Assembly (NCBI GenBank): GCA_017473865.1
Contig: JAFUJB010000016.1
Coordinates: 240,917-304,916, forward strand
Length of the DNA: 64,000 nucleotides
From: Clostridia bacterium
GTDB taxonomy: Bacteria; Bacillota; Clostridia; Oscillospirales; CAG-272
Direction: 5' to 3'
Position numbers and translations under genes: made by a program. The stretch's first letter is position 1, and every line of letters starts with the position of its first letter. Under the pieces are notes generated by a model that was not told the DNA's origin, searched no databases, and worked only from the letters and a program-made list of their open reading frames with translations. Shown here piece by piece: positions 986 to 9,029 of this stretch.

Positions 986-1826
986 ATATGTGGTAGGTAA
1001 GAAACCTAATTACACAATGCAAAGCACATCGGTCGTCCCGATGTGCTTTTTCTCTCTCCCCCCGTCCTATTTATAAAAACCTTGATTTTCAGAGGAATGT
1101 ATGGTATTATAAGTGCGGTAAATCGCAAGTTTATATCGGCCCAATAAAAGTGAAATTTACTTATAAATTACCCACGGTATCCACGATTTACCCATAACAT
1201 TCGAGACTGTGTTAGATTTAAAGATACAATATAAGAGGCTTTGTCAAACACTATGTCTATCCCCACCATAAAACCTTTGGACTAATATAGTTCAAAGAAA
1301 TCCAGTAGTTATGCGGTTTTGCGGTGGTTTAGAGCCTTAAAAAACTACGCTACTACGCCAATTTTCACAAGAGATTTGCAGAGAAAAGTCACTATGATAG
1401 TCTAAAATATCAAGCACCGTGCAAACTGCACGGCGTTTTTATTATATATAAATTTTTTTAGTTATGTGAGATATGTAAAGTTGCATTTTTAAACGTTAAG
1501 GAAAGTACCCGTTATTGTTACATAACAAAACTGTGCAGTGCGCCTTAATGATGGGTAAGACAGTGATTTATTTGAAAACAAAAATCTTGTAATTACAAAA
1601 TCAATATTAGAAAACGACATTTCATCTATTTACCCTTTTAGTTGCGCTAAAGGTATGTAAGGTATGTTATAATATGTCCCATATGCCATCGCGACTTATA
1701 ATTTATATTTAATTTTTGTATTCTGATAAAGCAATAACAATATATATATTATTGATAATATTGAATATACAAAAAACGACCGTTAAAAAGTGTTATCTTT
1801 TTAACGGTTTGCAAACGTATTAAAAA

Positions 1827-1861
1827 GCGCCGTAGATGATTTTCTACGGCGCTTTTTTTTT
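1827..1861. terminator. Bidirectional rho-independent terminator
   Basis: GCGCCGTAGA-tgattt-TCTACGGCGC, a 10-bp perfect stem followed by T9. There is also an A/T run on the other side. It lies downstream of the integrase gene on the minus strand. Confidence 0.6.
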
Positions 1862-1878
1862 CGCAGAGTTCCACACTC
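1862..1878. repeat. Left copy of a 17-bp perfect inverted repeat, CGCAGAGTTCCACACTC
   Basis: Exact reverse complement of 3291-3307. This copy also forms a local hairpin (CAGAGT-tccac-ACTCTG). Confidence 0.7.
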
Positions 1879-1925
1879 TGCAAATTAATGAAAAAAAGCA
1901 GTTAAAATAAGGGCTTAAAGAGTTT

Positions 1926-1948
1926 TTTTGACGGAAGCTCCTGACGGC
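1926..1948. repeat. Left copy of an imperfect ~23-bp direct repeat, TTTTGACGGARGYTCYTGACGGC
   Basis: TTTTGACGGAAGCTCCTGACGGC here versus TTTTGACGGAGGTTCTGACGGC at 3127-3148. Each copy contains two TGACGG half-sites. This copy abuts the integrase stop codon. Confidence 0.6.
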
Positions 1949-1949
1949 T

Positions 1950-3074
1950 TTACAAACAGCCAACCATGACGACCTTATTCATATTGTCACGTTTAAGTTC
2001 TAAAGATGAGTGAACATATCTTTCAAGTGTGATCTGTGGGCTTGAATGGCCGAGAATTTCGCTTAATGATTTTATTTCAAAACCACCCTCTACACACCGA
2101 GTTGCAAAAGTGTGTCGGAGAGTATGGAAATGCACATCTTCAATATCGCAATCTTTAGTGTACCTTTCCATTTTGTACTGCAAGGATCTTGGCTCTATGA
2201 ATTCATAAGGACTACCCGATAGAACAAATGCTGTCTGTGATAGCGGTTTGAACCTTTTGCAAAGGTTAATTGCAAAATCGCTTAAAGGTATAATCCGAGC
2301 TGAAGTATCGCTTTTTGGATCGCTGATTATAATTTTTGTTTTTGTAGTTCGGTTTATATCAAAATCCCTTAACCTTTGCATTGTGGAAGTGATCTTAATT
2401 ATTCCGTCTTTAATGGATATGTTTTCCCAGCGGAGCGCACATATTTCTCCTATTCTCATTCCGGTAAGCAAGGTTAATAGAGTGCCGAACTTGCAGTAAT
2501 CCATATCCTCAAGCAAATACTGAACAAATCGCATTTGTTCTTCTTTTGTCAGTACACGCATTTCCTTTTTTACATCTTTTGGGTAATAAATCTCAACATT
2601 AGGGAAAACCCCTTGATATTGACGGGCTGAATACTTTAATATTGAATGAAGAACAATTAAAATGTCTTTTACGGTTTTAGGAGCTAATTCTTCCTCATAT
2701 AATAGTTCTTGTGTGAATTGCTCTACTAATATAGTTGATAATGCCTGAATGAAGCAACCGCCAAGTTTGGGTTTTATATGTTTTTCTATTGTAGTGTTAT
2801 ACTTCACATAGGTAGATTCCTTTACCTTTATCTTGTTTAACCGCAGCCATTCATCACAATAGTAAGAGAATCTTTTGCGGCGATTTTGTTCAGGGGATGG
2901 CACGTTTATCAACAAGGCCGCTTTTGCACGCTCTACCTTCTCCTTTGCTTCACGATATGTCTTTCCGTAACAATAGCCATAACTAGCCGAACCGTTGGGA
3001 TCATAACCTTTTATATATCGAGCTTCCCAACGCTTATCTTTTCTTTTGTAAATATTTTCACCTTTTTTTGACAT
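1950..3074 (-). CDS. Tyrosine-type site-specific recombinase/integrase (phage-integrase family)
   Basis: 374 aa. C-terminal catalytic motifs HTLRHTFATR … LGHSSPQITLERYVHSS (the R…HxxR…Y tyrosine-recombinase signature). There is a core-binding-like N-terminal domain. Confidence 0.9.
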   Translation of the reverse strand: MSKKGENIYKRKDKRWEARYIKGYDPNGSASYGYCYGKTYREAKEKVERAKAALLINVPSPEQNRRKRFSYYCDEWLRLNKIKVKESTYVKYNTTIEKHIKPKLGGCFIQALSTILVEQFTQELLYEEELAPKTVKDILIVLHSILKYSARQYQGVFPNVEIYYPKDVKKEMRVLTKEEQMRFVQYLLEDMDYCKFGTLLTLLTGMRIGEICALRWENISIKDGIIKITSTMQRLRDFDINRTTKTKIIISDPKSDTSARIIPLSDFAINLCKRFKPLSQTAFVLSGSPYEFIEPRSLQYKMERYTKDCDIEDVHFHTLRHTFATRCVEGGFEIKSLSEILGHSSPQITLERYVHSSLELKRDNMNKVVMVGCL

Positions 3075-3126
3075 AATGAAACCTCCTTGATATTATGTAG
3101 TTTGAAAAAACTTTATCCTTTCCTTA

Positions 3127-3148
3127 TTTTGACGGAGGTTCTGACGGC
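3127..3148. repeat. Right copy of the imperfect direct repeat (TTTTGACGGAGGTTCTGACGGC)
   Basis: See 1926-1948. It lies ~55 bp upstream of the integrase start codon. Confidence 0.6.
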
Positions 3149-3290
3149 GGTACACCATTGCAAAATCGACAAAAACCATTGTAAAACTGCCTTTTAACCT
3201 CATCAAAAGGGAAAAAATCTTGAACTTTTTGCTTTTAGAGGCCAAAACCACTTGCGTTTTTGCGGATTATATGCTAAAATAACCCCCGTG

Positions 3291-3307
3291 GAGTGTGGAA
3301 CTCTGCG
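3291..3307. repeat. Right copy of the 17-bp perfect inverted repeat (GAGTGTGGAACTCTGCG)
   Basis: Reverse complement of 1862-1878. It lies ~170 bp upstream of the TetR gene. Confidence 0.7.
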
Positions 3308-3474
3308 AAAGCAGCTTAAAACAAGGGCTTATTCTATGTGCAATACTGTTTTTAGCATTTACCGGCAGAACCAAAGAGTTAATAATGTAAACTCTGTCGA
3401 TTTTTTCGGCGAGAGTTTGTTTTTTGAGTATTTTATAGTAAATACTTATGCTGCTTTGAAGGGGGAAGATTGTA

Positions 3475-4077
3475 ATGACGCAAGCAGAGCGAAAACTTGC
3501 GTTACTCTGTAGCACCATCTCTGTAATAGCTAGGGATGGCCTTGACAAAACAACAACAAGAGCTATTGCAACCGAAGCAAATCTGAATGAAGCTTATATT
3601 TATCAGTTGTTTGACAGTAAAGAGGATTTATTCAAAGAAGTCTTTGCAACCTTAGATGATGAACTGGTTTCAATAATTCTTTTCCGCTTACCTGTAATGT
3701 ATATGGAATCTATGGACTTTGAAACCCGGTGCCGTGCGCTGTTCTTTTCTTGCTGGAGATTTATCCTCGGCAACAAAGATAAGTGTCTTTGTTTTATACG
3801 CTATTATTATTCGCCTTACTTTAAGAAATATTCATATGACGAACATAATAAGCGCTACCAAAGTGTTCTTGAAAAAATGACACCTGCCTTTCGTAAAAAA
3901 AGTAATGTTTGGATGTTGCTTAACCACATTCTGAACACAATGCTTGACTTTGCCGTAAAGGTGTTTAACGGAGATATAAATGATAATGACGATACTGCTG
4001 AACACGTATTTTTGGTTATTTACTCATCCGTTAAACCTTATATTGAACCCCATCATTTGATAAATAAGGAGGGATAA
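3475..4077 (+). CDS. TetR/AcrR-family transcriptional regulator
   Basis: N-terminal HTH: TTTRAIATEANLNEAYIYQLFDSKEDLF. 200 aa. Immediately precedes the sipW-like gene. Confidence 0.85.
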   Translation: MTQAERKLALLCSTISVIARDGLDKTTTRAIATEANLNEAYIYQLFDSKEDLFKEVFATLDDELVSIILFRLPVMYMESMDFETRCRALFFSCWRFILGNKDKCLCFIRYYYSPYFKKYSYDEHNKRYQSVLEKMTPAFRKKSNVWMLLNHILNTMLDFAVKVFNGDINDNDDTAEHVFLVIYSSVKPYIEPHHLINKEG

Positions 4078-4083
4078 CCAAAG

Positions 4084-4617
4084 ATGCAAATGGAAAAGAC
4101 GTTAAAAAGAGTCTGGGATGTTATTTCAACGATTGTTGTTGTTATAGTAGTAATATTTGCGATTCTTTTGGTTGGTGTGCGTTTGTTTGGTGTACAGGTA
4201 TACTCGGTTATTTCAGGTTCAATGGAGCCTGAATATCCGGTAGGATCACTTATTTATGTTAAAGAAGTTGATCCTTCAAAAATTGAAGTAAATGATGTTA
4301 TTACTTATGTGTTGCCTAATGATATGCCATCTACTCACCGAGTAATAAAAATTGATGCCGAAAAACAATTGTTTTACACAAAGGGAGATGCAAATAAAAC
4401 TGAAGATGGAGCACCGGTTCATTTTAATAATTTAATAGGTACTCCCGTTTTCAAGATACCGTGTCTCGGATATGTTGCTTACTATATTCAGCATCCACCC
4501 GGTATGTATATTGCTATTGCTGCCGGAGCAGTTCTACTGATACTTGTCTTTCTGCCTGATTTATTCAAAAAGGATAAGAAGAAAGACGAGCACCCCACAA
4601 AACAGATGGGGATATAA
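4084..4617 (+). CDS. sipW: Signal peptidase I, SipW/archaeal-ER type (S26B)
   Basis: N-terminal TM segment, then the S26B catalytic-serine motif SGSMEPEYPVGSL. C-terminal TM anchor (IAIAAGAVLLILVFL) as in SipW. Followed by cognate TasA-family genes. Confidence 0.8.
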   Translation: MQMEKTLKRVWDVISTIVVVIVVIFAILLVGVRLFGVQVYSVISGSMEPEYPVGSLIYVKEVDPSKIEVNDVITYVLPNDMPSTHRVIKIDAEKQLFYTKGDANKTEDGAPVHFNNLIGTPVFKIPCLGYVAYYIQHPPGMYIAIAAGAVLLILVFLPDLFKKDKKKDEHPTKQMGI

Positions 4618-4673
4618 TTCAGGGGTAACGCCGTAAGGCTCCCAAATAAATACTTTTTAAGGAGGTTTTTGTT

Positions 4674-5372
4674 ATGAGAACAAAAACGAAAGCATTGGCT
4701 CTGGCTCTTTGCGCGGTGTTACTCGTCGTTAGTACAGTATTCGTAACGATGGCATTCCTCACCGGCAGTGATTCGGTCCAAAACACATTCACGTTTGGTC
4801 AAGTTGGAATATCGCTAGACGAAGCAGAAGTTGACGCAAGCGGTAAAGTAAAAAATGGCGAAAACCGTAAATCTACAGATGGTCGTGTTGAGGGAAATGA
4901 GTATCATCTTATTCCCAGCCACAACTATGTGAAGGATCCTACGATCCACGTAGATGACGACAGCGAAAATTGTTTGCTGTTTGTAAAGCTTGAAAATGCT
5001 CTGGAGCCCATCGTTGCAGGTAAAAATACTTTTTCTGCTGAAGATCCTGCAGATACCGTTTATACCATTGAAGCACAGATGATGAAGAATGGTTGGACTC
5101 TTATTGACTCTGCCAATAACATTTGGGCTTACAATAAAGTCGTTGCTGAAAATGAACACATCAACGTGTTTGATGAGTTTACACTCACCGATAATGCTGA
5201 TGTCTCCAAGTATGCAACAGTAAAGGATGATCAAGGGAATGTTAAAGGTGGCAAAACAATCAAAGTAACCGCATACGCAGTTCAGGCTGACGGATTTGTT
5301 GAAGATACTACAGTTTCTCCCGATGACGCGAAGAACGCTTGGGGCGAAACTAAAGATTCCTTTGAAAACTAA
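4674..5372 (+). CDS. TasA/CalY (camelysin, peptidase-M73) family secreted fibre subunit with SipW-cognate signal peptide
   Basis: Signal h-region followed by MAFLTGSDSVQNTFTFGQV, which fits the SipW-cognate class A-[FY]-[FL]-[ST]-D…N-x-F-x-x-G. C-terminal VTAYAVQADGF strand. RBS AAGGAGG. Confidence 0.7.
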   Translation: MRTKTKALALALCAVLLVVSTVFVTMAFLTGSDSVQNTFTFGQVGISLDEAEVDASGKVKNGENRKSTDGRVEGNEYHLIPSHNYVKDPTIHVDDDSENCLLFVKLENALEPIVAGKNTFSAEDPADTVYTIEAQMMKNGWTLIDSANNIWAYNKVVAENEHINVFDEFTLTDNADVSKYATVKDDQGNVKGGKTIKVTAYAVQADGFVEDTTVSPDDAKNAWGETKDSFEN

Positions 5373-5433
5373 TTTCGTAATTAAAGCAGAAGTGCTTAAT
5401 TAATAACAAATACAATGAAAGGAGAAAAATGAT

Positions 5434-6081
5434 ATGACAACTAATAAGAAGCTAGTAATTGCCATCGTAGCTCTTTCGATCGCACTCGTTTGCGTTATAG
5501 GCGGCACACTTGCATTCCTTATTGATTCCACAGAAACGGTAACTAACACATTTACATACGGCGAAATTGATATTGAGCTTTGGGAGAATACCGTTGATGA
5601 TGAAGGCAACCTAACGGAAACAAAGGATTACGACGGCATCGTATATGGAAAGATAGTTCCTGGTGATGTCGTTAATAAGAATCCTACTGTAACTGTTAAG
5701 GAAGGCAGCGAAGAGTGCTATGTATACGTAAAGGTTACAGATACTCTTGCAGTTGATTCTGTTGTTACCGATATGAGTATCGGTGAAAATAACGACTGGC
5801 AGGTTGTAAAAAATGATGGTAATGTAACTCTCTATCGCTATAAGACTACCGTAAAAGCTCCTGCTGAAAACAACGATAGCACTGCTGACGATATTAATAT
5901 TGCTGTTTTCACAAAAGTTACCTTCCCCGGTGAACTTACCAATGATCAGATTGAAAGTCTCAAGGCAGCTGGTAACAAGATTGAAATCCAAGCTTACGCA
6001 CATCAGTCCGAGAATATTGATGATGTAACTGTTGCCGATACTGAAGCAATCGCTTGGGCTAAAGTGACGGCTTCAAACTAA
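5434..6081 (+). CDS. TasA/CalY-family secreted fibre subunit (paralog 2)
   Basis: GGTLAFLIDSTETVTNTFTYGEIDIEL. C-terminal IQAYAHQSEN strand. Confidence 0.7.
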   Translation: MTTNKKLVIAIVALSIALVCVIGGTLAFLIDSTETVTNTFTYGEIDIELWENTVDDEGNLTETKDYDGIVYGKIVPGDVVNKNPTVTVKEGSEECYVYVKVTDTLAVDSVVTDMSIGENNDWQVVKNDGNVTLYRYKTTVKAPAENNDSTADDINIAVFTKVTFPGELTNDQIESLKAAGNKIEIQAYAHQSENIDDVTVADTEAIAWAKVTASN

Positions 6082-6122
6082 TTCAAATCAACCCACGAAG
6101 TTAAAGAAAGGAAAAACGAAGC

Positions 6123-6728
6123 ATGAAAAAAGGTTTAATTCTTGTTCTTGCTATAGTGATGGTTGTCTGCATCAGCATCAGTGCAACTCTTGCATATTTG
6201 TTCGTTGAGACAACCCCTGTAAAAAACACCTTTGAGTATGGCGATATCAACATAGAACTTAAGGAACATAAGTATGTAGACGGTAAATTGACAAACGAAG
6301 AAGTAACAGCTAACACCAGTTACAAAGTAGTTCCTGGTGTTAGCGAAGATAAAGATCCCTTCGTAAGAGTAAGGAAAGGCAGCGAAAAATGCTACATTTA
6401 CGTTACTGTTGAAAATAGTGTAAAGTTGGATGATGGTACTGTTGTGGCTTCTGTTAATATCAATACAACTGATTGGGTTAAGGTCGCCGCCAGTGGTGAT
6501 ATCACACTTTACCGTTACAAAGACGTAGTTGATGTTTCTGATGCTACAGAGGATATTGAACTTCCGGTGTTTACAACAGTAACCTATGATGCTGAGAAGA
6601 TTCTTAAGGACAATATTGCACAAGTCAAAGACGATACAATTACCGTTATTGCTTATGCATATCAAGCAACCAATGTGGAACAGAGCTATGCTGATACAGC
6701 TGTAAAGACTATGGCAGACATCTCCTAA
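6123..6728 (+). CDS. TasA/CalY-family secreted fibre subunit (paralog 3)
   Basis: SATLAYLFVETTPVKNTFEYGDINIEL. C-terminal VIAYAYQATN strand. Confidence 0.7.
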   Translation: MKKGLILVLAIVMVVCISISATLAYLFVETTPVKNTFEYGDINIELKEHKYVDGKLTNEEVTANTSYKVVPGVSEDKDPFVRVRKGSEKCYIYVTVENSVKLDDGTVVASVNINTTDWVKVAASGDITLYRYKDVVDVSDATEDIELPVFTTVTYDAEKILKDNIAQVKDDTITVIAYAYQATNVEQSYADTAVKTMADIS

Positions 6729-6759
6729 TTTAAGTCTGAATTGACAATTAATATCCTAA

Positions 6760-7527
6760 ATGAAAGGAAACAATACCATGAAAAAGAAGATTTTATCAAT
6801 TTGCCTCGTTGCAATTATTGCAATTACAGCGATTGCAGGTGCTTCTCTTGCATACCTCACCGATCGTGATAGTGCAGAAAACGTATTCACTTTCGGAAAT
6901 GTAGAGATTAAACTTAACGAAACGTTTGAAGATAACGAACTCATTCCCGGTAAGAAGCTTGCCAAGGAAGCAACTATCGCGAACACCGGTAAAAATGATG
7001 CTTGGGTTTGGATCACGGTAGCAATTCCTACTGTACTTGACGGTGGTGCTGATGCTTCCAAGAACGTTCTTCATATGAATATTCCCGGTAAGTATTGGGA
7101 TGATTATTTTGATGATCCCAAATATTCCGATGGTACGGTAACAATAGACCAGACATGGAATGCTGATTATAACTCTTTCAATACAATGATTGATAATGTT
7201 GAATATACAGTATATACACACCTTTATAACGGTAAACTTGCTGCAGGCGCTACAACAACAACTTGTCTCAGCACTGTATATCTTGATGCTCATGTAGATA
7301 TCAATACTGACGGACAGCTCTATTGGGTAGAAGACGGAACAGCAACCAAAATCGATTGGAATGTAAATGATAACGGTGCTCCCAGCGTTTACGTTTCTGC
7401 TTACGCTATCCAGAAAGAGGGTTTTGAAAACGTTGAAGATGCTTATAAGGCATACAATGAACAGTGGGGTAACAATGGCGCAGAATACGGTGCAGTTGTG
7501 AAACCCGCTACCCAGCCCGCAGCATAA
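6760..7527 (+). CDS. TasA/CalY-family secreted fibre subunit (paralog 4)
   Basis: GASLAYLTDRDSAENVFTFGNVEIKL. C-terminal VSAYAIQKEGF strand. Confidence 0.7.
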   Translation: MKGNNTMKKKILSICLVAIIAITAIAGASLAYLTDRDSAENVFTFGNVEIKLNETFEDNELIPGKKLAKEATIANTGKNDAWVWITVAIPTVLDGGADASKNVLHMNIPGKYWDDYFDDPKYSDGTVTIDQTWNADYNSFNTMIDNVEYTVYTHLYNGKLAAGATTTTCLSTVYLDAHVDINTDGQLYWVEDGTATKIDWNVNDNGAPSVYVSAYAIQKEGFENVEDAYKAYNEQWGNNGAEYGAVVKPATQPAA

Positions 7528-7563
7528 ATCACGATTTTCCTACGATAAAGGAGACATTATATT

Positions 7564-8298
7564 ATGAAAAAGAAAATTGTATCAATTGCACTTGTTGCTT
7601 GTCTTGCACTTATGGCAATCGCCGGTGCATCTCTTGCTTACTTTACAGATACTGATGATGCAACCAACGTGTTCACCTCCGGAAAAGTAGACATTACCCT
7701 TAATGAAGTGTTTGACGAAGAGAAAGCACAGCTTATCCCCGGTGTTGATATTCAGAAGGACGTTACGATTTCTCTCAGTGACGATAGCGTTGAATCTTAT
7801 GTTTGGTACACTTACGCCATCCCCGCAGTACTTGATGATGCCAACGATCAGGCTTTCAACAATATTATTCACGTTAATCATGCAGGAAGAAACTGGCTTG
7901 GCTATCAGAACGATGAGAAGTATTGGGCAGAAGGTCAGACCGCAGCTACTCCTGAGGATCAGTGCTGGATCATTGATAACGTTGTAATTGAACTGAAGGA
8001 AATTGACGGCGTTCTCTACAACGTATATGTAGTTCTCTACAACGGAACTCTCGATGCAGGTGAAAAAACCACGATCGGTATGACTAATGTTTATTGCGAC
8101 ACCAAGGTTGATTTTGACAACAAAACAGGTAAATACACAATCAATGGTCAGGACATCGGATTTGATCTTAACAACGTTAAGATCATCGTTACCGCTTACG
8201 GCATCCAGGCGGCAACATTCAACACTGTTCAGGAAGCATATGCTGCATATAACGCGCAGCTGGAAGATATTCCTGCAGGCGCAGTTGATATTGATTAA
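7564..8298 (+). CDS. TasA/CalY-family secreted fibre subunit (paralog 5)
   Basis: GASLAYFTDTDDATNVFTSGKVDITL, a close match to the CalY/TasA N-terminal consensus. C-terminal VTAYGIQAATF strand. Confidence 0.75.
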   Translation: MKKKIVSIALVACLALMAIAGASLAYFTDTDDATNVFTSGKVDITLNEVFDEEKAQLIPGVDIQKDVTISLSDDSVESYVWYTYAIPAVLDDANDQAFNNIIHVNHAGRNWLGYQNDEKYWAEGQTAATPEDQCWIIDNVVIELKEIDGVLYNVYVVLYNGTLDAGEKTTIGMTNVYCDTKVDFDNKTGKYTINGQDIGFDLNNVKIIVTAYGIQAATFNTVQEAYAAYNAQLEDIPAGAVDID

Positions 8299-8445
8299 TT
8301 GAAATAACAGATCCGAATACTCTGCTCCCTTTTGGGAGCAGGGTATATACGGGTACCTCAGCTTGACTGAGATGTCCATATATGCCCTGCTATAAATACG
8401 AGCGGGTTTTATAAGATTATTATATTTGATGGAAGGAAATGAGCG

Positions 8446-9015
8446 ATGAAAAAGAAAATATTGGTTTGCGCTTTCATAGCTGTTTGCTTGTCAATTGTTG
8501 CATATAGTACTACTGCATATTTTACATATGAAGATACTGCTACTAATGTAATAACGATGGGAAATATCAAAATTGAATTACAGGAGTTGGCAATTCCGGG
8601 TAGTGGTGGAGATCCAATTCCTTTCGAGGACGCAATTGATGTGCTTCCAGGAATGGATGTATCAAAAATTGTTCAAGTAAAGAACGTCGGAGCTCAACCG
8701 TCTTGGATTAGAGTATCTGTTGCAAAATCCATATTACTTGCTGACGGTATCATCGGTGAGGTAGATTTATCACTCATTACATATGATTTGAACACGCAAT
8801 ATTGGATTGAACAGGACGGATATTTTTATTACAAAGATATTGTTAATCCCGGCGAAACAACAGAACCGCTGTTCACGAAAGTGATGTTCGCGTCTAATAT
8901 GAGCAATATGTATCAGCGAAGTAAAGCTACAATAAAAATCAATGCACAAGCAACACAAGTGGTTAACAACGGCAGCATGGTATTTGAAGCTGCCGGTTGG
9001 CCGAAAGCAGAGTAA
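8446..9015 (+). CDS. TasA/CalY-family secreted fibre subunit (paralog 6, divergent)
   Basis: YSTTAYFTYEDTATNVITMGNIKIEL. C-terminal INAQATQVVN strand. Preceded by a 147-bp gap that contains two hairpins. Confidence 0.65.
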   Translation: MKKKILVCAFIAVCLSIVAYSTTAYFTYEDTATNVITMGNIKIELQELAIPGSGGDPIPFEDAIDVLPGMDVSKIVQVKNVGAQPSWIRVSVAKSILLADGIIGEVDLSLITYDLNTQYWIEQDGYFYYKDIVNPGETTEPLFTKVMFASNMSNMYQRSKATIKINAQATQVVNNGSMVFEAAGWPKAE

Positions 9016-9029
9016 GGAGGTAGAGCAAA

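Follow-up and report, generated by a model that had tools for sequence, protein, structure and literature searches.

A recombinase-encoding DNA segment as a probable phase-variation switch upstream of a TasA-type fibre operon in Clostridia

In a 64,000-nucleotide stretch of a Clostridia bacterium genome (contig JAFUJB010000016.1 of assembly GCA_017473865.1; hereafter the window), a tyrosine recombinase gene, int, lies directly upstream of genes coding for TasA-type fibre proteins and is bracketed by two sets of short repeats, one inverted and one direct. The question that such a locus raises is what the recombinase acts upon. A first-pass annotation had left two answers side by side: an invertible segment carrying its own recombinase, able to gate the genes downstream, or a small excisable integrase module or att remnant. 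Our analysis favours the former, with a probability that we put at roughly 0.8. Positions 1859–3310 would be a self-contained phase-variation switch for the fibre operon, in which the recombinase flips the 1.41-kb segment that encodes it. The gene (1950–3074, minus strand, 374 aa) is indeed a tyrosine recombinase, as had been claimed, with matches to Pfam Phage_integrase (PF00589, E=3e-25) and Phage_int_SAM_3 (PF14659).

The outer repeat had been described as a 17-mer, CGCAGAGTTCCACACTC, at 1862–1878 with its exact reverse complement at 3291–3307. This is correct, and the perfect inverted match reaches 20 nt (TTTCGCAGAGTTCCACACTC, 1859–1878 against 3291–3310), longer than reported. Further copies of the 20-nt repeat were not found in the 64-kb window, even with three mismatches allowed, and none of 100 dinucleotide shuffles yielded two matches. 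Chance, or a plain terminator hairpin, is ruled out as the source of the repeat by this uniqueness in the window together with its conservation. Relatives of int were collected by a scan of one genome per species that gave 80 loci, about 75 of them with enough flanking DNA to be assessed (labels of the type Lnnn designate loci or contigs carrying relatives, and Pnnnn proteins). In about 65 of these 75 loci the repeat pair brackets int at fixed places, 190–250 nt upstream of the ATG and 70–90 nt past the stop codon, with a span of 1.42–1.6 kb, while the identity of the recombinase falls from 100% to 45%. Absence of the repeats from close relatives with the same integrase had been named beforehand as an outcome that would speak against inversion; the repeats are present in them, which favours the finding.

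Anchored on their conserved part, the repeats of the relatives read TCGCAGAGT-N5-ACTCTRCGA, the form in the window being TCGCAGAGT-TCCAC-ACTCYRC. To judge by this pattern, each repeat is a complete tyrosine-recombinase core site, in which a short asymmetric centre separates two inverted half-sites of 9 nt. The left one, IR-L (1859–1878, plus strand), is TTTCGCAGAGT-TCCAC-ACTC(TGC), with its inverted half-sites around a 5-nt centre. The right one, IR-R (3291–3310, minus strand), is inverted relative to IR-L, and the orientation breakpoints of relatives fall there. The outer half-site is conserved while the centre, of 5–7 nt, varies widely (43 variants among the 60 loci compared for this feature), and in 56 of the 60 the centre is the same at both sites of the locus. 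Strand exchange requires identical centres, and such co-variation is what would be expected of sites that recombine as a pair. Several genomes contain more than one of these units of recombinase gene and sites, which we will call cassettes (L016/L017, L021/L040, L028/L051, and L020/L038, the last two 10 kb apart on DXGQ01000042.1). Where both members of a pair were analysed, paralogous cassettes within one genome differ in their centres, GGAGC in L016 against GGATC in L017 and TCATT in L021 against TCCCA in L040. Such differences, sometimes of a single base, would be predicted to prevent recombination between them.

The segment between the sites (1879–3290, 1412 bp, or 1452 bp with the sites included) was found in both orientations among the relatives, across different samples and between genomes that are closely related. 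Two metagenome-assembled genomes whose Int is 78% identical to that of the window, L004 and L058, have exchanged flanks once both loci are oriented on int. The flank on the tetR side of L004 finds its match in the reverse-complemented other flank of L058, and the reciprocal comparison gives the same picture; the alignments (~800 and ~420 nt) are near-identical beside the sites and stop exactly at the site. Contig L095 (Logan SRR24653782, Int 93%) has the same arrangement as the window, at 86% identity, and when L002 and L093 are compared with L095 the segment is 95.7–99.6% identical and the flanks are 92–99% identical but swapped in position. The junction of L007, whose Int and TetR are both 94% identical to those of the window, matches the prediction for an inverted window. 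Ten human-gut contigs with one identical Int (P0117; L082–L091) provide a similar example, seven with int co-directional with tetR and three divergent, both orientations sitting between the same relaxase and tetR-sipW flanks. Over the species genomes in which a cassette adjoins tetR or sipW, ~13 have the orientation of the window and ~12 the opposite one.

The ends of contigs tell the same story. Five independent contigs of 1452–1478 nt (L092, L110, L111, L050 and L076) end 0–10 nt outside the sites, and for ~25 of the 120 best protein matches the longest contig is of 1.4–1.65 kb. The runs in which contigs break at the sites include SRR27361826, ERR13264925 and SRR32206247. Contigs ending at the sites are what is expected of an assembly graph when the segment occurs in both orientations or in several contexts. 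With conserved sites, both orientations between the same flanks and short contigs that end at the repeats, the earlier proposal of an invertible segment with its own recombinase stands at the DNA level, and inversion in nature is strongly supported.

Many relatives (L003, L004, L005, L007, L058 and L082–L091) have a third copy of the core site, located on the tetR side and ~101 nt farther out than the inner one. In the P0117 loci copy A is found on one side, and the tetR side has copies B and C separated by 101 nt (4766–4786, 6200–6220 and 6301–6321 in L082). The products of recombination between them were found in natural contigs: inversion between A and B in L085, inversion between A and C in L083 and L089, which shifts the 101-nt module to the opposite side, and deletion between B and C in L088 and L091. 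Together with the starting state, the three-site relatives show four arrangements (two inversions and the deletion of the 101-nt module being the others), and therefore the switch can have more than two states. The window retains only a decayed third copy, near 3385–3400.

The recombinase itself has a complete catalytic set (R207, K254, H317, R320, H343 and Y353, aligned with the motifs of Tn1549 Int), and the Tn1549 integrase is also its closest solved structure by sequence (PDB 6EN0/6EMY, E about 6e-12). Only tyrosine-recombinase domains were found in the domain search of Int, with no resolvase-type domain of the serine invertases. The NCBIfam models for tyrosine DNA invertases of the FimB/FimE type (NF007370 and NF007371) gave 17–18 bits, against cut-offs of 221–222. 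The 70 N-terminal residues are predicted to form three strands and a helix (predicted local distance difference test score, pLDDT, of 82).

This N-terminal domain is of interest in view of the inner repeat. The direct repeat reported before does exist, as TTTTGACGGAAGCTCCTGACGGC at 1926–1948 (23 nt) and TTTTGACGGAGGTTCTGACGGC at 3127–3148 (22 nt), with an indel of 1 nt between the copies; an ungapped pattern search recovers only the 1926–1948 copy, the second being 1 nt shorter. It was also right that the copies flank int, one abutting the stop codon and the other ending 54 nt before the start codon. What is conserved in them is a pair of CCGTC motifs on the int strand. Upstream of int, at 3130–3148 (minus strand), GCCGTCAGAACCTCCGTCA has two CCGTC 12 nt apart and is located, counted from 3146, ~73 nt ahead of the ATG of int at 3074. 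The other pair, in GCCGTCAGGAGCTTCCGTCA at 1929–1948 (minus strand), follows the int stop codon immediately and has its two motifs 13 nt apart. Among the 67 cassettes used for counting motifs, the upstream pair was on the int strand in 64 and on the opposite strand in 2, and the downstream pair was on the int strand in 60 and on the opposite strand in none. The CCGTC pairs are probably arm-type sites, which the N-terminal domain of the recombinase would bind. This assignment is suggested by how regularly the motifs are spaced, how well they are conserved and how they differ from the core motif, all of which fit arm-type sites. A candidate promoter of int, TTGATG-17-TACAAT, was predicted at 3178–3206 (minus strand) by a consensus scan and is moderately conserved in close relatives. 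The upstream CCGTC pair (3130–3148) is located between this candidate promoter and the ribosome-binding site of int, where binding of the recombinase could autoregulate its own synthesis.

What the inversion would switch is suggested by the non-coding DNA of the cassettes. In an alignment of 21 of them, a block beside the site on the int-5' side is conserved as TTGC..-17-TG.TA.AAT (or, more loosely, TTGnnn-17-TGnTAnAAT); apart from the core sites, it is one of three elements conserved in this alignment, the two CCGTC pairs being the others. It corresponds in the window to a putative outward promoter, P_out, at 3252–3280 on the plus strand, divergent from the candidate int promoter, with a -35 box TTGCGT (3252–3257), a 17-nt spacer and an extended -10 box TGcTAAAAT (3272–3280). 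P_out ends 10 nt before IR-R and faces tetR, with a predicted start at ~3287. Over the 67 cassettes the mean of the best outward promoter score was 10.7, against 6.3 on the int-3' side and 7.9 in shuffles. A TG-extended -10 box is present in 43 of the 67, and in 37 the -10 box ends 8–11 nt from the site. Predicted in this way from conservation, P_out would read out of the segment into the neighbouring operon. The suggestion that inversion gates tetR-sipW-tasA remains plausible in this form, with an outward promoter at 3252–3280 in place of the read-through from the int gene that had been imagined.

Another promoter given by the consensus scan, at 3068–3096 (TTGACA-17-TATTAT), was at first taken as the outward one. 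It overlaps the int start codon and was rejected: its -35 box is fixed by Met-Ser codons, its -10 box overlaps the ribosome-binding region of int, and the alignment favours 3252–3280. An open reading frame (ORF) of 86 aa at 3252–3512, covering P_out, IR-R and the leader that follows, is annotated as a gene in the public assembly (L001 3563–3823, L094 2778–3038); it is probably not a real gene.

At the other end of the segment, the bidirectional terminator that had been noticed just outside the left repeat was confirmed at 1822–1857. Its perfect stem of 15 bp is flanked by A and T runs, and it abuts IR-L. It is kept beside the site in L002, L058 and L095, and in L002 it faces P_out. A second bidirectional terminator-like hairpin is found at 1779–1808 in the same flank. 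Besides, a second direct repeat of 22–23 nt, AAGCAG(C)TTAAAAYAAGGGCTTA, had been missed by the first-pass annotation. Its inner copy (AAGCAGTTAAAATAAGGGCTTA, 1896–1917, plus strand) is inside the segment and is one arm of an orientation-dependent stem, while its outer copy (AAGCAGCTTAAAACAAGGGCTTA, 3309–3331, plus strand) stays in place in the flank next to tetR. Once the segment is reversed, these copies pair as a 23-bp stem enclosing the core site. L002 and L007 have this stem, and it is predicted for the inverted window too, with z-scores of -3.2 to -4.5. An ordinary hairpin with a T-run occupies the same place after int in lineages such as L009, L010 and L012. We infer that in the lineage of the window the int terminator is split and becomes assembled only when int faces tetR, and that in the other orientation the flank terminator at 1822–1857 ends the int transcript.

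The locus downstream is made up as had been proposed, with a TetR gene (3475–4077), a SipW-type signal peptidase gene (4084–4617) and then genes for TasA/camelysin-like proteins, of which there are six paralogs in a row (4674–9015). They are followed by a gene for a 1602-aa protein (9030–13838) with BNR/sialidase-like, VWA and DUF5979 domains and by three unannotated ORFs of ~200 aa. We take the presumed target operon to extend from 3475 to 16133 on the plus strand, an extent drawn from gene orientation only. Such a gene set would be in keeping with a fibre that has a large tip or accessory adhesin. The neighbours of other cassettes include surface proteins with Flg_new, DUF5979 and DUF7601 domains, an N_methyl pilin, a VWA protein, a priming sugar transferase (Bac_transf), a dockerin protein, an S26 peptidase and TetR, and the neighbouring surface-structure genes point away from the cassettes.

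In the human-gut lineage with Int P0117 (L082–L091; protein indexed in 3364 blocks of the collection), the cassette and its tetR-sipW-tasA genes adjoin a relaxase gene, MobC/NikA-like and DUF3848/DUF3849 genes and a gene for a 2813-aa MutS/SNF2-helicase protein. In these contigs a mobilisable or conjugative element may therefore carry the switchable fibre locus. To the left of the segment, the window has a 150-aa ORF (533–985) with an AAA_14 ATPase domain that looks truncated, and a HEPN_AbiU2 gene is found just past the left end of the window in the source contig (L001 7158–7772). This left flank may be a defence-gene neighbourhood.

Put together, these elements suggest the following mechanism. 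The 374-aa recombinase, encoded inside the segment, would recombine the inverted core sites and flip the 1.41-kb segment. Its N-terminal domain would bind the CCGTC pairs, so that four core half-sites and four arm repeats would be brought together in a tetramer. Since the arm sites are both carried along by the segment, the two orientations should be equivalent substrates, with a reaction that should reverse without a directionality factor. In the putative ON state, that of the window, P_out would read through IR-R into tetR-sipW-tasA and int transcription would end at the bidirectional terminator abutting IR-L. In the putative OFF state, which corresponds to the arrangement of the closest relatives L002, L007 and L093, P_out would fire into the flank terminator, the int end would face tetR, and the 23-bp stem around the core site would block read-through. 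The probable outcome is cell-to-cell on/off heterogeneity of a TasA-type fibre, to which TetR and a hairpin in the leader of the operon would add further control.

Several observations weigh against this reading of the locus as a switch. Exact look-ups of Int and TetR gave six assemblies with the exact TetR of the window, all collapsed into one arrangement. The orientation variants come from relatives with 65–93% identical Int rather than from the strain of the window itself; a metagenome scan for the exact 19-nt site yielded a single contig, L093, an OFF-like example, which is too sparse for population counts. The short contigs ending at repeats would also arise from a multi-copy element. Pfam gave no match to Int residues 1–69, and fold searches with the N-terminal domain returned non-specific matches only, which bears on its arm-binding role. 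The promoter activity and the ON/OFF assignment are predictions from sequence. Finally, a terminator-like hairpin with a T-run (3389–3425, plus strand) lies between IR-R and tetR and would also stop the P_out transcripts, unless it is leaky or regulated, and a cassette-free relative points to a promoter of the operon's own. These last two points are the basis of the first of the alternatives.

According to this alternative the segment does invert but without controlling the operon, inversion serving self-regulation of the recombinase or being a selfish flip-flop, and the operon depends on a TetR-controlled promoter past the leader terminator. The leader hairpin, the 5' arm of which includes the decayed third core-site copy, has equivalents at the same position and with different sequence in L007, L058, L095 and L096. 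It is followed, just before the ribosome-binding site of tetR, by a palindrome, AGTATTTTATAGTAAATACT, at 3427–3446. In L096 (TetR 61% identical) a TetR-TasA locus without cassette has a similar hairpin and TAGTAAA before tetR, which implies a local promoter. The operon of the window may likewise have its own switch-independent promoter near TAGTAAA and the 3427–3446 palindrome. Upstream of tetR, the loci L096–L103 (TetR P0143) have ~900 nt of non-coding DNA in which the core-site motif was not found, and several of their contigs break 50–340 nt before tetR.

Possible roles of the hairpin are those of an attenuator, an insulator or an operator. A TetR operator was discarded as its principal interpretation, given that the TetR of L007 is 94% identical and yet the hairpin differs in sequence. 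A scan of 1400–4700 with Rfam found no riboswitch or leader that would explain the hairpin, only sub-threshold matches on the tandem terminators at 1779–1857. Against this alternative, leader terminators past invertible promoters are compatible with regulated read-through in other systems, such as the capsule loci of Bacteroides and the switches of C. difficile. Moreover, among the non-coding elements of the cassette only the core and arm sites are better conserved than P_out, cassettes consistently adjoin surface-structure genes pointing away from them, and the terminators are on the non-target flank, directly against the site. We consider that an inversion without effect on the operon is unlikely.

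Also unlikely, in our judgement, is that the 1.45-kb unit is an insertion-sequence-like mobile cassette, with terminal repeats and the recombinase as transposase, that was inserted upstream of the fibre locus. There are facts that would agree with it. Some metagenome-assembled genomes have several copies (L016/L017, L021/L040 and L020/L038), with >7800 proteins at E<=1e-30 the family is very large, many different genes adjoin the cassettes, and the related TetR-TasA locus of L096 without cassette implies gain or loss at some time. Short contigs bounded by repeats are also produced by a multi-copy repeat, and the closest solved relative of the enzyme is the integrase of a conjugative transposon. 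However, close relatives differ by in-place inversions between the same flanks and not by new insertion sites, and no target-site duplication is present at the outer edges of the repeats (GGCGCTTTTTT before the left one and GCAGCTTAAAA after the right one). Each end is a complete core site of two half-sites with a matching centre, as inversion requires, and paralogous cassettes in one genome have different centres. The linkage of the cassette with tetR and sipW is kept from 100% to ~55% Int identity, and transposition would have no use for an outward promoter that is conserved. Occasional mobility would be compatible with a switch.

The remaining proposal, that the int module is excised between the TGACGG direct repeats (1926–1948 and 3127–3148) or that these are att remnants of a decayed element, is hardly credible and we abandon it: although the copies are direct, flank the int ORF and are unique in the window, they lie within the inverted core sites, both CCGTC-pair positions are conserved (64/67 and 60/67) with variable bases in between, a pattern of protein binding and not of att cores, none of >100 related loci has the predicted deletion between them, and the deletions that were seen (L088, L091) join two direct copies of the core site instead.

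A switch of this kind can be compared with several known systems. The likeness to the hin-H segment of Salmonella that had been suggested holds for the architecture. As in hin-H and Gin/Cin/Pin, the recombinase and an outward promoter are inside a ~1-kb segment bounded by inverted sites, and in hin-H the orientation connects or disconnects a surface-appendage operon. It does not hold for the enzyme, Hin being a serine recombinase that needs a Fis-bound enhancer, whereas the cassette has a PF00589 enzyme with the RKHRHY residues, 9-5-9 core sites and candidate arm sites. With fimS of E. coli the cassette shares a tyrosine recombinase that inverts a promoter driving a fimbrial or fibre operon. 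However, FimB and FimE are of ~200 aa, without N-terminal domain, and encoded outside a 314-bp switch with 9-bp repeats, while the cassette enzyme, of 374 aa, possesses an additional N-terminal domain and its gene is part of the switch. A recombinase ORF enclosed in the invertible segment, of 844 bp, has been described for the fimbrial switch of Providencia stuartii (PMC5903667).

The enzyme itself resembles most the heterobivalent integrases of Tn916 and Tn1549, with which it shares the SAM-like core-binding and catalytic domains. Three strands and a helix are predicted for its N-terminal domain, and close to the ends of the cassettes there are repeated motifs that differ from the core sites. 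Those integrases excise and integrate a mobile element via attL and attR with heterologous coupling sequences, while in the cassettes the sites are inverted with identical centres, inversion takes place in situ and both candidate arm sites are internal. The variants observed were in-place inversions and deletion between direct core sites, rather than the integration and excision that characterise heterobivalent integrases.

Within Clostridia, the RecV switches of C. difficile (cwpV, flgB and cmrRST) are also cases of phase variation of surface structures by a tyrosine recombinase. In cwpV the orientation decides whether a leader terminator forms (PMC2784873), which resembles the orientation-dependent 23-bp stem of the cassette. 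RecV is encoded elsewhere and serves many switches of 150–300 bp downstream of fixed promoters, while every cassette is equipped with a recombinase of its own and contains the promoter. In the hCom2 gut community, inverton group 139 of Clostridia, which has a tyrosine recombinase/integrase gene close by and shifts orientation during culture passages, has been linked to the tyrosine recombinase invertase group 35 (PMC11892184). Compared by description and not by sequence, these invertons differ from the cassettes in being of ~230–260 bp and located beside the recombinase rather than around it. The supplement of that work does not contain the site motif. Our literature searches found nothing that linked sipW/TasA loci to an invertible element and nothing that described the cassette or phase-variable sipW/tasA.

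The odds seem to us about even for a wider reading, in which the window would be one member of a very large and apparently undescribed family of autonomous 1.4–1.5-kb "flip cassettes" of gut Clostridia, with a Tn916/Tn1549-like integrase re-purposed as an invertase. Each flip cassette would contain the integrase, two internal arm sites, an outward promoter and two core sites with a cassette-specific centre. The family would impose phase variation on TasA-type fibres, pili, sortase-anchored adhesins, capsule genes and cellulosome components, and its three-site members would give more than two states. The einverted limit of PhaseFinder is 750 nt. Cassettes of ~1.45 kb would be longer than the repeat distance that common inverton finders allow by default, and this could explain the apparent paucity of invertons in Clostridia.

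If the switch works as proposed, a major group of the Clostridia of gut and rumen (Acutalibacteraceae, Oscillospiraceae, Lachnospiraceae and Ruminococcaceae) would vary its surface fibres, pili, adhesins and capsules by means of a modular cassette equipped with enzyme, sites and promoter. The contig breaks and the orphan contigs of 1.45 kb found at such loci would then be the signature of a switch and not noise, and orientation could be scored in existing metagenomes and fibre expression related to host, diet and phage pressure. It would also provide an example of a conjugative-transposon-type, arm-binding integrase acting as a reversible invertase, in which the location of both arm sites on the inverting segment makes the control of directionality directly testable. 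Being compact and with a centre that apparently sets its specificity, the cassette could yield orthogonal genetic switches for Gram-positive anaerobes.

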